Source of the DNA: Candidatus Freyarchaeum deiterrae
GTDB lineage: Archaea; Asgardarchaeota; Jordiarchaeia; Jordiarchaeales; Jordiarchaeaceae
Assembly (NCBI GenBank): GCA_037305845.1
Contig: CP147778.1
Span: forward strand, 1,440,001 to 1,504,000
DNA length: 64,000 nucleotides
Reading direction: 5' to 3'
A program made the position numbers and the translations under genes. Positions 11,545 through 61,840 of the stretch are shown one piece after another; positions within the stretch are counted from its first letter, which is position 1, and each line of letters starts with the position of its first letter. Below the pieces are notes generated by a model. The model was not told where the DNA came from and ran no database searches. It worked only from the letters and a program-made list of their open reading frames with translations.

Positions 11545-13040
11545 TTACCCCTTTACAACACCAAGAGGACGCAAACGTGCAACCATAGACGCTATCCCCG
11601 CATCATGCGAAGCTTGCACCACTTCATCAACATTCTTGTAAGCCTCTGGGGCTTCCTCACTCACAACTTGAGCACTAGCCGCCCTAACAAAAATCCCCTT
11701 CGACAAGAGTTTGCTTTTCACACCCTCACCTGAAAAGCTCTTAATCGCCTGAGTCCTACTCATCACACGGCCGGCACCATGTGCGGTGGAGCCGAAACTA
11801 AGCTCCATTGCTTCTTTTCGTCCTCTAAGTATGTAGCTGGCGGTTCCCATGGTTCCAGGTATTATCACCGGCTGACCTATGCTTCTATATTTTTGTGGAA
11901 CTTCTGGATGGTCTGGCGGAAAGGCGCGTGTGGCTCCTTTTCTGTGTACATAAACAGAGTGAGTCTCACCGTTAACCTTGTGCTTTTCTATCTTTGCTAT
12001 GTTATGCGCCACATCGTAAATCAGATGCATATCAAGATCTTCAGCTGACCTTCCAAATACGTTTTGAAAGGATTCTCGTATCCAGTGTGTTATACTCTGT
12101 CTATTTGCCCAGGCGAAATTCGCGGAGGCAGCCATAGCCGCTAAGTAGTCTTGTCCCTCAGGACTGTTTCCAGGAGCGGCTGCTAGTTCTCTATCGGGTA
12201 AATTAATTCCGTATTTTCTTGAGGCGTTTTCCATGATTCGTAGATAGTCAGAGCAGACTTGATGTCCTAGACCCCGTGAACCCGTGTGAACCATTACGGT
12301 AACCTGATTCTCACTTAATCCTAAGACCTTGGCTGCGTCTTGATCAAAAATTTTCTCTACGTATTGAATCTCGAGAAAATGATTACCTGCCCCTAATGTT
12401 CCCACTTGGGCAACCCCTCTCTCCTTTGCTTTGCTTGACACTTTTGAAGTGTTCGCTCCCTCCAATTTTCCATTCGCTTCGCAGTTTAAAGCGTCCTCTT
12501 CCCATCCGAAACCGTTTTTAATAGACCAGCTAACGCCCTCGGAAAGAATTCCGTCCAAGTCTCTAGCTGAGAGTTTAATTTTTCTCTTAGATCCCAAACC
12601 ACTAGGCACATTATCAAACATTTCTTTTGTTAACTCTTTTATCTTGGATTCAGCGTCCTTCCTCTCAAGATTGGTTTTAATCACTCTAACACCGCAATTG
12701 ATATCATACCCAACCCCGCCGGGACTTACAACTCCGTTGTCCTCAATATCAGTAGCGGCTACTCCGCCTATTGGAAAACCGTAGCCCTGATGAGCTTCCC
12801 TCAGTAGAGGACATCCTCTCCTGAATCGGGCAGGGTTACGGAGAATTTTTTTATGCCTGGCAGGCTGCATACGTTAACGGCTTGGATTAGAGTTTGATCC
12901 TTATAAATATCTTTAAGCAATACCTCGTTTGCAATAATTCTGGCTGGAACCCTCATGTAGGGTCGATAATCTTTAGGAATCTCCCAAATGTTTTTATTAA
13001 TCTGCTTAAGAGGAATATTTCTTGTACTCAAAACAATCAC
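11545..13040 (-). CDS. rtcB: RNA-splicing ligase RtcB; two exons (13040/13031-12825 and 12795-11545), about 485 aa spliced
   Basis: Exon 1 ends ..VTLPD, exon 2 starts [11 protein letters not shown]; DINCG, GNHF, HTGSRG, HN, HRKGA, HGAGR motifs intact. Confidence 0.96.
12796..12824 (-). other. 29-nt BHB-type intron in rtcB mRNA
   Basis: CCCG AU|U CAG-G-AGAGG AUGU CCUCU-A-CUG AGGG AA|G; excision restores LPD-AHQGYG; in-frame UGA inside. Confidence 0.88.
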
Positions 13041-30515: not shown

Positions 30516-32450
30516 TTATCCCTCTAACCTTTGTTTTAATTTTTTACGAAGGAGTTCAGCCACTACTTTTCCGTCGATGTTGCCCCTAACTTTTTCCATC
30601 ACTTTACCCATCATAGGGCTAAACGCTCTTTCTCCGTTTTTTTCTATAAAGTCGCTGCTTTCATCAAGTATTTCATCGATTATTCCTTCAAGTTCCTCCG
30701 TGGTAATGGTTTCCAGTTTCAATTCTTTGAGAGCGTCCTCAACTGTAATTGAGGGAGATTTTCCAAGTACTCGAAGGACTTCCTCCACTGCCTCTTTTGC
30801 AATTTTACCTTCAGAGAGAAATTTGAAAGTCTCTTTAATTTTTTCTTGAGGTATTTCATCTGTTTGAATGTTCTCTCTATCCAGTGCTTTCATAGTTTGA
30901 AGAAGAGATACAGCAACGATCGTCGGATCTATTTTAATTTCTTTAACAATTTCCATGAAAAGCTCCATTTTTCCAGATCCCATCAATTCCTCTGCGAACA
31001 ATTCGTTTATCTTGTATTTCTTTGCCAAGCGTTTCTGAACCACCCAGGGATATTCTGGAAGGTTTTTTCTAATTGATTCTACTCTTTCTTTTTCTATAAC
31101 CAGTGGTGGCGAATCTGTATCGGGATATAGACGCGCCCCGCCATGTAACTCTCTTAAGAATTCGCTGTTGCCATTTTCTAGGGCTCTTCTGGTTTCTCTT
31201 AGTACACCCTTTAAGGCTCGCTTGGCGCGGCTAACGGCGTTATCCAATGCCTTTTGTGCTTTACTTTCATCTCCAATAACAATTGCATATGAGTCCATCT
31301 CGTCCAGAGCGAGAAAGCTTCGCAGCTTTGAATCCTCTTCCACACTGATGTTGTATTTATCAAGTTTTTCATCGGAATGGATAATGCCCTTTAGTCCGGT
31401 AATCACTGTTACTCTCTCAGCGATTTCCTTTCCAAAACTTTTTCCTGGTTGAACCTCTTTGCCTAATAATCCAGCAAATTTGGGCAGCTTTACCGACAGC
31501 ACTTTTTCTTCCTTTTTCTTATTTTTAATAATCTTGCATTTGGTAGAAGCGAAAATCTTGGAAGCATCTTTATATTCCGGTGAAAAGTCTTCTTCCTTTA
31601 CCCCTCGTTCTAATAGCTGCTTCTTAATGTCTAGTAGTGCAACTTGTCTTATTGTCTCATTTTCAGCTAGTCTAGGGATCCATTCTAACTTCTGGACTCC
31701 CTTGATTTCAACCCGCTCACCGCCCTCTATACTGACGTTAATATCCTGTCTTATGGTTCCAAGTCCCCTCTTTACCTTCTCTGTTGATCGTATAAGCATC
31801 CCTATCTTGTAAGCGGTTTTAAGAATTTCATCCGGATTTGTTATTTCCGGTAATGTAACGATTTCCACTAGGGGAATTCCCAATCTGTCTATTCTATAAT
31901 AAACTGTTTTCTCTTCTTCCCTAATTTTTCTAGCAGCATCCTCTTCTATACAAATAGTGGAGACTCCGATTTTCTTACCGTCGAGTGGTATGAAGCCGTC
32001 TGTTCCGATGATTAATGTGCGCTGAAATCCACAGGGAACTGATCCATCGAGATAGTTTTTTCGTAGGATGTGCAATTCGTCTATTACCTTTGCATTAAAC
32101 AGGAGTGAAATTTCAATACCTATGTCTATCGCTTCTTGGGAGATGTCAAAAGGAGGTGTTTGATGCTTGCAGGTGTTCTACATGCAAGTTTCATCTATCT
32201 CATATGTGCAGTTAACATCATTAAATCCTTCATATACGATAGTACGTCCTTTTTCATACTCAACTAGCATTGCTTCATCATACTTCCCCATCTCACCTAA
32301 TACTGGTCTAAAATATCTCTTAACTAGAAATTCGGGTTCATCGGTTTTTAGAATTGGCTGACAGAGACAGAATAGTTTGCGATTGGTTAGAAGCTCCTGG
32401 TGAATTTCAATTCCTGCCTTGAATCCTAGTTTTTCGTATTCTAGCTCCAA
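30516..32450 (-). CDS. gatE: Glu-tRNA(Gln) amidotransferase subunit E; two exons (32450-32190, 32159-30516), about 634 aa spliced
   Basis: Y..LG.K.GIEIHQ.L, KLFC, DE|TPP across junction, DGS...GFQRT, RGLGTIRQD, R.YP.TD. Confidence 0.95.
32160..32189 (-). other. 30-nt BHB-type intron in gatE mRNA
   Basis: GAUG AA|A CUUGCA ... UGCAAG CAUC AA|A; perfect 4-bp central helix; in-frame UAG inside. Confidence 0.9.
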
Positions 32451-42397: not shown

Positions 42398-42542
42398 GCA
42401 GGGATAGCCAAGTGGTAAACGTTAAACGTATCCGCAACGGCGCAGATAGTCTACAATGGTAGATAGCGTAAGCCTGGAGAACTTTCTTGGAAGCCTGTGA
42501 TCCGTAAGGATCGCGTGGGTTCAAATCCCACTCCCTGCGCCA
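42398..42542 (+). tRNA. tRNA-Ser(GGA) with three introns: 42418-42437 (21/22), 42446-42471 (29/30), 42480-42491 (37/38); CCA encoded
   Basis: Acceptor GCAGGGA/TCCCTGC-G-CCA, long variable arm, GTGGG-TTCAAAT-CCCAC; anticodon stem CAGGC/GCCTG forms after excision; mature 87 nt. Confidence 0.9.
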
Positions 42543-42629: not shown

Positions 42630-43672
42630 CTATTGGGTTTTTTCTTCTTTGTGTTTTTTCCATAGTGAGGGGTAGGTTCCGGGTTCCATTAGTACTCTGT
42701 CTACTTCTACTGCGATTCCGTGATTTGAAGAGTACATTTCTTCGCTGCTCATTTTTGAGCTGCCTAAAGCTACTGCTTCATTTTTGAGTGTGAAAATAGC
42801 AACAAGGTTCCTTACACCTATTTCGCTCTCTAGCTTTACTATTCCTGGGACTGTTAGGTTGGCGCCATGGCAGATAGAGTCCACGGCTGAGTCGCGTATG
42901 AATATTTTGGGTATGTGTTCTAATGCCTTTTCCATGGGTTGTATTATGTTTCTTAAGAAGGATTCATCTCCATCTTCCTTCCAAAAATGGTAAGCATCAA
43001 TAACATCATGCAGGTTTGCAAGAGTATCTTCTTTGAAAGGCCCGGTTCGGGTTCGTCTGAGTTCTTTCATATGGGCGCCGCAGCCCAAGATTTCACCAAT
43101 ATCGTGGCAGAGCTTTCTTATGTAGGTACCCGCCTCGCAACCAACGCGAAGAAGCCCGTTTCGAGCCTCCATCTCTTTTAATTCAATATAGTATATTTCC
43201 CTAATTCTAAGTCTTCTTCTAACGGAGGAGCGGAGTGGTGGGCGTTGATATATTGGCCCTACGAGCTCATTTACAACGTTCCTGAACTTCTCTTCTGGCA
43301 CGTCGCCGTGTAGTTGAATGACGCAGACGTATTCTTTCCCCGCCGGAAGAAGAGTCTGAACCACTTTGGTTGCTGATTCCAAAGCTACAGGGAGTACCCC
43401 GGTGACTTTGGGATTTCACTACTCCTCGCAAAATGCTAGAGGAGTTCTAGTGTCCCAGAGTGACCCGCCTTTTGAATATTGAGAATTTTTTTAACCCAGC
43501 TAACTACTTCATGCGAAGTTGGGCCAGGGGGCTTATCCACATTGATTATACCATTTTTTATGTATTCTTCTATTGGGCGTTGGTTGGGTGGGGTTCCATA
43601 CGTGGGGTCTGAAGTTGCTTCGGCTTTTTCAATTAATTCTCTTTTCTTGTCACTTGGTAAAAAGTGGTCCAT
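42630..43672 (-). CDS. cbf5: H/ACA pseudouridine synthase Cbf5; two exons (43672-43447, 43414-42630), 336 aa spliced
   Basis: [25 protein letters not shown] across junction, [11 protein letters not shown] domain. Confidence 0.97.
43415..43446 (-). other. 32-nt canonical BHB intron in cbf5 mRNA
   Basis: UGGGA CACU AG|A ACUCCUC...GAGGAGU AGUG AA|A UCCCA; splits the catalytic Asp codon G|AU. Confidence 0.96.
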
Positions 43673-59856: not shown

Positions 59857-60288
59857 TTGAGTGGTATTGCAGTTGGTGATTTCTTTAAAGAGCTATCAGC
59901 TCTTCTCGGATCGCGGGTTGAAGTTAACACCGAAATCGGAAAATCTTACAATGGTATCCTCAAAGGATTTGACAGAACCACACTCAGTATAGTATTAGCG
60001 GAAGCTAAGGATAATAAAGGAACTTATTATCACCGCATATTTATACGAGGCGAAAAGATCAATGAAATAATAAAAGCAGAGGAACCCTTTGACATGAAAG
60101 GACTTTATTTTGAACTCAGAAAAAGTTACCCCCCTGGGGAAGTAGAGTTTTTAGAAGACAGCCGAATTATACTTGTTCTAAAGAAGATAAGAGTAACCGA
60201 GGACGGGGTTGAAGGAGAGGGGCCCCTAGCAGACAGGATAAGACAGGTATATGACAAATATATTCAAGAGAAAAAACCAAAGCAGTAA
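59857..60288 (+). CDS. Lsm/Sm-like RNA-binding protein with C-terminal domain (SmAP3-type)
   Basis: Sm1 (GKSY.G.L.GFD..LSIVL) and Sm2 (IFIRGE.I) plus about 65-aa C-domain. Confidence 0.88.
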   Translation: MSGIAVGDFFKELSALLGSRVEVNTEIGKSYNGILKGFDRTTLSIVLAEAKDNKGTYYHRIFIRGEKINEIIKAEEPFDMKGLYFELRKSYPPGEVEFLEDSRIILVLKKIRVTEDGVEGEGPLADRIRQVYDKYIQEKKPKQ

Positions 60289-60389: not shown

Positions 60390-60739
60390 CTATTCTACCT
60401 TAAGTGGAAACGTGTAAATTCTACATAGAGCCACTGCTTTCCAAGGGTCCAGCAACCCCTGCTTCTGTTGATAATCTTTTCTTGCCTTTTCTTCCCTCGC
60501 TTCAATGCAACTTTTGCACCGAGGATGCCTCGGATCGATTAGCCCAGCCTGCGGCTGTGTGGCCCTTCACATGAAGCGCAGTGAAGCATTAGAACAGGCA
60601 GATTTTCACTGATTTCTATGCGAAAATACTCGTTGCCATCAAACTCATCCTTAAAATCGGGCCAAATTCCGTAAAGATTCTGAGACTCAAGAACTTCTTT
60701 TAAACGAATGAATATTTTTTCGAAACTCGTCATCTCCAT
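60390..60739 (-). CDS. Hypothetical 2x CxxC protein; two exons (60739-60559, 60538-60390), 109 aa spliced
   Basis: Spliced: ...HCASCEGP-L-DPRHPRCKSCIEARE...WKAVALCRIYTFPLKVE. Confidence 0.8.
60539..60558 (-). other. 20-nt BHB intron in CxxC protein mRNA
   Basis: G GGCC AC|A CAGCC GCA GGCUG GGCU AA|U C; exon-1-frame UAA ends the intron. Confidence 0.82.
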
Positions 60740-60989
60740 ACACCACTCATAATTTCTCGATACTCCTAACTTTTAAAGACAAAAAATTTCTGAGAATTAA
60801 TGGAGGAAGCTCTTTACACTTTGATCATGAGCCTTATCAATTCTTTAAGAGCTCTATCCAAATACCTCCGGTAATTTACTATTCTTGGTTTAGAATTAGT
60901 TTAATTTAAATTCTAGTAATATCTAAGATAGATTCCTCAACGTTTTCCAGATTGTAGACGATACAAAAAGCCCTTGCCGCTTTTTTAAA

Positions 60990-61689: not shown

Positions 61690-61840
61690 TGGTGGGCAGG
61701 AGAGGAACTTCCGCATATCACAGGAAGTGATACGCTTTTGAACCCCTTTAAGGAACACTTAAACTGTGTTTGACCTCCTGAGCCCAAGTCAGGAATCATA
61801 CCAAGTTTTCCGCTACACATTAGCTCTAGACTACCTGCCC
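61690..61840 (-). tRNA. tRNA-Pro(TGG) with three non-canonical introns: 61806-61825 (15/16), 61748-61771 (48/49), 61707-61736 (59/60); CCA encoded
   Basis: Acceptor GGGCAGG/CCTGCCC-A-CCA; CCTGA-CTTGGGC-TCAGG arm; T arm AGGGG-TTCAAAT-CCTCT after excision; mature 77 nt. Confidence 0.92.

Follow-up and report, generated by a model that had tools for sequence, protein, structure and literature searches.

In the stretch of DNA analysed here, 64,000 nt of the closed, curated, 3.58 Mb genome of the Asgard archaeon Candidatus Freyarchaeum deiterrae (contig CP147778.1, positions 1,440,001 to 1,504,000; hereafter the window), one gene on the minus strand very probably encodes a protein of about 107 amino acids (aa) with four cysteines (Cys4), and would be interrupted between its two CxxC motifs by a 20-nt intron of the relaxed bulge-helix-bulge (BHB) type. 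BHB hairpins of this kind are normally cut from archaeal tRNAs. The example is a clean one, in that the junction is set to the exact base by homologues, the insert exists in two lengths with different offsets, the second exon is under selection, and the host gene is unrelated to RNA metabolism. All coordinates are those of the window, and the letters of the gene are given 5′ to 3′ on the minus strand.

The proposed spliced reading frame and its homologues

An earlier note on this DNA had described a 66-aa open reading frame (ORF) that stops inside a BHB made of a GGCC/GGCU helix and a CAGCC/GGCUG hairpin, and its coordinates and pairs were confirmed: according to the ORF list and its translation, the frame occupies 60739..60539 (−) and ends on the final three bases of the 20-nt insert, the TAA stop (60541-60539) being made up of the last base of the central helix and the first two bases of the 3′ bulge. 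Around this point the gene is divided into three parts. Exon 1 (60559..60739, −) supplies the first CxxC together with an N-terminal helix and a beta-hairpin, and its final base is the first base of a Leu codon; the BHB-type intron (60539..60558, −; ACAGCCGCAGGCUGGGCUAA) is the segment whose removal leaves a gap-free frame with respect to the intron-less homologues; and exon 2 (60390..60538, −), 149 nt long when its TAG stop (60392-60390) is counted, contributes the second CxxC along with a helix and the last beta-strand. The RNA around the insert reads CAC UGC GCU UCA UGU GAA GGG CCA C|AC AGC CGC AGG CUG GGC UAA|UC GAU CCG, and cuts at AC^A and AA^U would join the exons as GGGCCAC^TCGATCC, in a 330-nt frame of 109 aa with the pattern CASC-x10-CKSC. 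Across the junction the spliced product is ...CASCEGP|LDPRHPRCKSC..., with the Leu codon split as C|UC. Translation thus reproduced the exon missed by the ORF list, the junction and the cysteine pattern, as they had been proposed.

The evidence that carries this reading comes from the homologues. The spliced protein matches more than 25 intron-less homologues without a gap, all of them with CxxC-x10-CxxC, and the corresponding contiguous ORFs are found in Jordarchaeia, Odinarchaeia, Bathyarchaeia, Nitrososphaeria and one further Asgard lineage. It was precisely homologues of this kind, intron-less, spanning both exons and with the same cysteine spacing, that the earlier note had named as the check to be made, and they exist in at least four other archaeal lineages. 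At the junction the intron-less genes encode ...HCASC[DE]GPLDPRH.TC.QC..., including the Leu made by the spliced C|UC, while the consensus of the wider family at the same place is CxxC[DE]GP[LS]DxxHxxCxxC. When the spliced protein is used as the query, tblastn gives two pieces in different frames in the genomes of the same genus and in L008, a genome of a sister family; in Jordarchaeia (L009-L012) and Odinarchaeia (L013-L015) the match is single, contiguous and gap-free over about 100 residues. A profile of the family behaves in the same manner, matching the source genome in two different frames, with an exon 1 part at 60548-60733 (E 2.8e-19) and an exon 2 part at 60408-60545 (E 1.2e-7); among 201 Asgard genomes these split matches are found only in the source genus and in genome G009, and the other 12 genomes that bear the family have contiguous matches. 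As judged from these alignments, the excision restores what is predicted to be a functional product.

The second line of evidence is the conservation of exon 2, where the ratio of non-synonymous to synonymous substitution (dN/dS) between species of the genus is 0.04-0.21, in the same range as in exon 1 and with synonymous sites near saturation, and exon 2 is therefore translated in its own frame in the lineages that bear the intron. Homologues that end at the stop of exon 1, with no similarity to exon 2 beyond it, would have spoken for the opposite view; what is found in the genus are called proteins that all end a few residues after ...CASCEGPH, the longer ones being extended only at the N-terminus, while the DNA downstream of them keeps the selected exon 2. 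The public protein records of this gene in the genus are all truncated or wrongly extended stumps, and the 107-aa product is invisible to gene callers, so that a corrected gene model is one of the by-products of the analysis.

With respect to the start of the protein, the length of 109 aa given in the earlier note is correct if translation is counted from the first ATG (60739), but the second ATG (60733), which yields 107 aa, is more likely to be the start codon, because the relatives begin at the position of MTSFEK with ATG, TTG or GTG. The first ATG was discarded for the same reason, the start in the relatives being two codons later. A GGTG is present 7 nt upstream of the ATG at 60733, and a putative A/T-rich, TATA-like box (CTTTAAAAG; 60770..60778, −) can be read about 35 nt upstream of this likely start.

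Fold, history and proposed processing of the insert

The insert and the end of exon 1 can be folded into a central helix of 4 bp, the 5′ strand of which, GGCC (60561..60564, −), lies in the Gly-Pro codons of exon 1 and pairs with GGCU (60541..60544, −), within the intron. On one side of this helix is the three-base bulge ACA (60558..60560, −), invariant in all the intron-bearing loci, in which the cut would fall at 60559/60558; it is followed by the inner 5-bp hairpin CAGCC-GCA-GGCUG (60545..60557, −), in which 97.5% of the cells of the alignment are paired, and, after the return strand, by the three-base stretch AAU (60538..60540, −), which is A-N-U in all loci and would be cut at 60539/60538. 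These positions are fixed, because the intron-less homologues demand exactly that junction. The arrangement of two 3-nt bulges with a 4-bp helix between them and symmetric cuts is the layout of a BHB; beyond the 3′ stretch just one pair is possible, a G-C between 60565 and 60537, the outer helix being otherwise absent, and for this reason the motif is a relaxed BHB (hBH / BHL-like).

The same insert is found at an identical site in ten loci from independent genomes and metagenomes, among them eight assemblies of the source genus and the sister-family genome L008. It is 20 nt long in six of these loci and 25 nt in the other four, with exon 2 offset by +2 or +1, and despite the two lengths exact excision leads to the same junction in all ten. 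The inner hairpin is CAGCC/GGCUG in the window, CAGCA/UGCUG in L007, CAGCU/AGCUG in L008 and CAGUU/AGCUG in L019, such that its innermost pair may be C-G, U-A, A-U or U-G, and the return strand of the central helix, which can be GGCU, GGCC or GGUC, always pairs with GGCC. The four pairs of the central helix are kept in eight of eight sequences, with changes between G-C and G-U at two of them; in the whole motif, such switches affect four pairs besides the innermost one. In the alignment, 98.6% of the cells are paired in register, a share that falls to 12-54% if the 3′ partner is displaced by 1-3 columns. The covariation is, in our view, supportive and not decisive.

A number of observations weigh against the interpretation of the insert as an intron. 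The canonical outer helix of the hBHBh′ form is missing, which leaves the bulge with the 3′ cut site open, and the plain minimum free energy (MFE) fold does not contain the central helix. The covariation is thin, both sides having changed at one pair only, and its score is reached in 55 of 500 shuffles; moreover, the conservation of the GGCC strand provides no independent evidence, because this strand sits in conserved Gly-Pro codons. A scan of both strands for relaxed BHB motifs (a 4-bp helix, a 3-nt bulge, a 5-bp hairpin with a loop of 3-12 nt, and the return strand) gave 272 matches in the window, compared with 214-267 in ten Markov shuffles. Finally, the search of the protein collection returned no full-length protein of the spliced type from a close relative, nor one containing exon 2. 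If only GC-rich matches of the BHB scan are counted (at least seven G-C pairs and at most one G-U), there are two in the window and between none and one in the shuffles. The GC-rich BHB reported in the earlier note is present, but it is relaxed, without the outer helix, and chance alone would produce such a fold as often; it is therefore the comparison with other genomes that has to carry the case. A BHB conformer that includes two flanking exon hairpins has −23.2 kcal/mol, 0.4 above the MFE of −23.6.

These flanking hairpins, also on the minus strand, are CUUC-AUGU-GAAG (60565-60576) and CCGAGG-CAU-CCUCGG (60519-60533). The former directly abuts the central helix and could stack there, replacing the missing outer helix; both are made of conserved codons and are absent in L008. 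The other GC-rich match of the scan, at 2755-2775 (−), was discarded as due to chance, as it is in frame inside the uninterrupted 435-aa ORF of aroA (EPSP synthase), and this look-alike is a useful negative control for intron calls made from structure only.

As regards the history of the insert, a protein tree built from about 108 columns groups the intron-bearing L008, as sister, with four intron-less Jordarchaeum sequences (98/95); the next branch is the Freyarchaeia clade, in which all members have the intron, and Odinarchaeia are outside; the 20-nt and 25-nt forms have 15 of 20 bases in common. The most likely history, as far as this tree can be trusted, is one gain of the intron in the ancestor of the order of Freyarchaeia and Jordarchaeia, followed by a precise loss in the genus Jordarchaeum, which is a simpler course than for the intron to have been gained twice at one and the same base. 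The insert occurs once in its genome: no other copy was found within six mismatches, nor any element with ACAGC...GCT ends and a 7-bp duplication. In L008 (L008:1477-1542, −) exon 1 and the intron finish with the same seven bases, GGGCCAC, and a 13-nt palindromic core separates the two copies; the repeat is 7/7 in L008, 6/7 in L005 and L006 and 5/7 elsewhere, and the BHB makes use of six of the seven positions as well. A duplication of the target site may have given rise to the BHB, or the repeat may simply follow from the palindromic GGCC helix.

The enzymes that such an intron would need are encoded in the same genome. Two genes belong to the EndA family (PF01974) and, from a reading of their motifs, the product of one has the Tyr/His/Lys catalytic pattern while that of the other has no His, like the structural beta subunits, which points to an endonuclease of the heteromeric alpha/beta type. 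In Asgard archaea the splicing endonuclease has been described as an (alpha-beta)2 enzyme with an L1 loop, and relaxed motifs are cut only by EndA types of broad specificity (PMC5829648); the type of enzyme matters here because the motif is relaxed, with just one G-C pair past the 3′ stretch. The RNA ligase RtcB, presumed to be the enzyme that joins the exons, is encoded at 11548..12798 (−), the sole match to PF01139 in the genome (E 1.3e-171). In the paper that described the source genome, introns were recorded in 92-95% of the tRNA genes, and none was reported in genes for proteins (PMC11291895).

With these elements, the processing of the message would proceed as follows. In the primary transcript, the GGCC at the end of exon 1 would pair with the GGCU near the end of the intron, with the CAGCC/GGCUG hairpin held between them; the heteromeric (alpha-beta)2 EndA would cut in the ACA bulge and in the AAU stretch, and RtcB would join the exons, whereby the Leu codon C|UC and the frame ...CASCEGP-L-DPRHPRCKSC... 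would be created. An unspliced message would yield no more than a 66-aa stump, which has one half of the metal site.

Competing explanations and known systems

A message that is never spliced could still give the full protein if the ribosome shifted frame or hopped over the 20-25 nt. Programmed translational bypass is known from gene 60 of phage T4. In L008 the repeat of GGGCCAC would permit a Pro-tRNA to leave a CCA and land on an identical CCA, yielding the same protein, and a hairpin does follow the take-off site; however, the landing site in the window and in most relatives is GGGCUAA, GGGCCAA or GGGUCAG, where the matched codon is lost, so that take-off and landing codons agree only in L008 and neither in the window nor in seven other loci. 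A simple frameshift, for its part, would leave 16-17 residues between the CxxC motifs instead of the x10 that is invariant in the family, and the 20-nt and 25-nt forms would require opposite shifts. What is conserved is the BHB pairing, and recoding of this kind is very unlikely to be the explanation. The supposition that the gene is decaying or split, with only the stump or nothing at all being produced and exon 2 remaining as a relic, would account for the fact that every gene caller stops at the insert and that the long form of the protein is missing from the protein collection; but a relic would hardly show the in-frame conservation and dN/dS described above for exon 2, the insert is kept at one site across two families, and the stump is without two of the four invariant cysteines and part of the fold. 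We consider decay highly improbable.

The cut by EndA might also be real and serve as a switch, for the decay of the mRNA or for regulated expression, the spliced form being produced only under some conditions. Some yeast mRNAs are marked for decay through cleavage by TSEN (PMC10485636), two products are possible because the unspliced message carries a stop of its own, and the BHB fold has a rival of equal energy. The selection on exon 2, on the contrary, requires that the mRNA be ligated and translated often enough to matter, and a switch of this kind is very improbable. As to an error of assembly or sequencing, only the short length of the insert could be adduced in its favour, and it is scarcely conceivable when the same insert, with substitutions that preserve the pairing, occurs in ten loci from independent genomes and metagenomes, and when the genome is closed and curated (PMC11291895). 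A spliced message thus continues to be by far the most probable interpretation of the interrupted Cys4 gene.

In the searchable literature, archaeal mRNA splicing of the endonuclease type is documented for cbf5, in its coding sequence, and for one Haloferax transcript. In the cbf5 pre-mRNA the introns have relaxed BHB motifs, which (alpha-beta)2 EndA cuts (PMC2738675, PMC10485636), the Haloferax transcript has been added as a case of an mRNA processed by EndA, with more expected (PMC10485636), and a 2026 preprint about the tRNA introns of Asgard archaea leaves mRNAs aside. The nearest parallel is the cbf5 intron of Desulfurococcales and Sulfolobales (Watanabe 2002; Yoshinari 2006; Yokobori 2009; PMC2738675), which is also short, located within coding sequence, of relaxed BHB form and found in hosts with an (alpha-beta)2 EndA, has a patchy distribution by gain and precise loss, and leaves the message interrupted when unspliced. 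The Freyarchaeum intron does not belong to the cbf5 intron family, its host gene being that of an unnamed Cys4 protein, although the mode of working is alike; it further differs in that this protein is uncharacterised, in its Asgard phylum, its shorter length of 20-25 nt and the absence of the outer helix, and in that its splicing is deduced from sequence. In the structure scan of the window, perfect BHB folds were also seen at 43415-43446 and 32160-32189 (−), the sites of cbf5 and gatE, and the fold at the cbf5 site has a full outer helix, unlike that of the intron at 60539..60558.

With the archaeal tRNA introns at non-canonical positions (hBH / HBh′ / BHL; Marck and Grosjean 2003; PMC5829648) it shares the 4-bp helix, the 3-nt bulges, the cut after the second base of the bulge and, presumably, the enzymes; in contrast, it is located in an mRNA, its flanks are coding sequence, and there is no helix of a mature domain to close the 3′ bulge. 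The mRNA of HVO_1309 in Haloferax volcanii (PMC7714728; PMC10485636) is, similarly, an archaeal EndA substrate that is neither tRNA nor rRNA, whereas it is cut by a euryarchaeal alpha2 enzyme on a canonical motif. The suggestion of the earlier note that these introns are not limited to genes of RNA metabolism is borne out, since the host gene belongs to a family without known function whose usual partner is the gene of DNA polymerase D (PolD). The example is in keeping with the view that some Asgard archaea routinely splice mRNAs with the machinery of the tRNAs; if this is true, it would bear on the question of an intron-tolerant form of expression prior to the eukaryotes.

The Cys4 protein family and its gene neighbourhood

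The other by-product of the analysis is an unnamed, widely conserved protein family of Thermoproteota and Asgard archaea, tied by gene order to PolD. Its members, of about 100-110 aa, form 198 clusters at 90% identity, typically of 103 aa, with 26 representatives among 1.84 billion proteins; all of them are called hypothetical and none has a Pfam domain. In 29 sequences C52, C55, C66, C69, G57 and P58 are invariant, as are F4, E5, F8, W24, P25, F27 and R99, and D60, H63 and L97 nearly so (numbering of the first row of the family alignment). The four invariant cysteines are the basis on which the site is presumably one that binds zinc or another metal. The further cysteine near the C-terminus that the earlier note had mentioned does exist in the Freyarchaeum protein but is not conserved, and it was rejected as a ligand, since the position varies between C, A, S, F and T.

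Searches of Pfam, NCBIfam, the sequences of the PDB and the ESM Atlas gave no match to the family, the best zinc-ribbon match being DZR, weak (E 0.04) and below the curated cut-off. In an AlphaFold2 model of an intron-less orthologue from Jordarchaeia (pLDDT 86), the protein is predicted to form one compact domain, in the order helix, beta-hairpin, Cys4 site, long helix and strand, where the part corresponding to exon 2 would supply two of the cysteines, the long helix and the last strand, and thus the 66-aa stump cannot be a complete domain. Among possible structural neighbours (Foldseek on the PDB, VIA-align and a fold search of the atlas) none was convincing, the best having Z 3.4 and TM 0.47. 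The small zinc-ribbon and zinc-knuckle proteins with four cysteines resemble this family in having two CxxC pairs about 10 residues apart at the transition from a beta-hairpin to a helix; the N-terminal FExxF...WPxF, in contrast, is specific to the family of the Freyarchaeum protein.

Two variants of the family may be recorded here. One member, P0022 (146 aa), has an extra N-terminal zinc ribbon, CxxC...CxxC, fused before the usual domain. Two Odinarchaeia loci (L033:1474-1806 and L039:1477-1809) lack any ATG, GTG or TTG at the conserved N-terminus (...LEVYYTTGFEK) or ahead of it, and L038 has a TTG there; the start codon may be an unusual one, or the start may have been set wrongly.

In Freyarchaeia and Jordarchaeia the Cys4 gene is tail to tail with an Lsm gene in all the loci examined. 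In the window this convergent neighbour, already noticed at the first reading, is found at 59857..60288 (+) and encodes an Sm-like protein with matches to Pfam LSM and Lsm_C. In Odinarchaeia, Bathyarchaeia, Nitrososphaeria and ‘Asgardarchaeum’ the Cys4 gene is directly upstream of the gene for the large subunit of PolD (DP2), on the same strand; in 16 fetched loci the PolC_DP2_N gene begins 12-170 nt downstream of the Cys4 gene, with one overlap. In the loci of Thermoproteota, the genes upstream are those of PcrB and Elf1. The loci L026-L043 (for example L036:1501-3229 and L038:1486-3300) show a conserved arrangement of four genes, which is apparently undescribed.

The Cys4 gene adjoins that of the PolD large subunit in most other lineages, which is the only lead to a function; the best guess is therefore that the protein binds zinc and assists the replication machinery as a small partner or helper, with a real connection to PolD, a possibility that we nevertheless regard as doubtful. 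Against it, the link consists of gene order only and is absent in the source genome, where DP2 is 247 kb away; a prediction of the complex between the Cys4 protein of Bathyarchaeia and the first 474 residues of DP2, made with alignments, spoke neither for nor against binding. The stronger proposal, that the gene encodes a zinc-binding accessory factor of PolD whose production in the Freyarchaeia lineage depends on mRNA splicing of the tRNA type, is unlikely. Were it true, the activity of EndA and RtcB would gate a protein linked to replication, one gain and an exact loss would imply that introns can be removed by way of a reverse transcript in Asgard archaea, and the whole would be a small-scale analogue of the dynamics of eukaryotic introns in the closest prokaryotic relatives of the eukaryotes.

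Rfam and ARAGORN, run over the whole 64-kb window, gave no matches and no tRNA, and both are silent at 61690-61840 and 42398-42542, where the first reading had placed candidates for tRNA genes with several introns; the standard tRNA finders seem to be blind to heavily interrupted tRNA genes. Lastly, a contig of a metagenome-assembled genome labelled as a Krumholzibacteriaceae bacterium (L030, DATKLC010000071.1) carries an archaeal Cys4 gene next to a PolD DP2 gene, and is probably a mis-binned archaeal contig similar to those of Bathyarchaeia.
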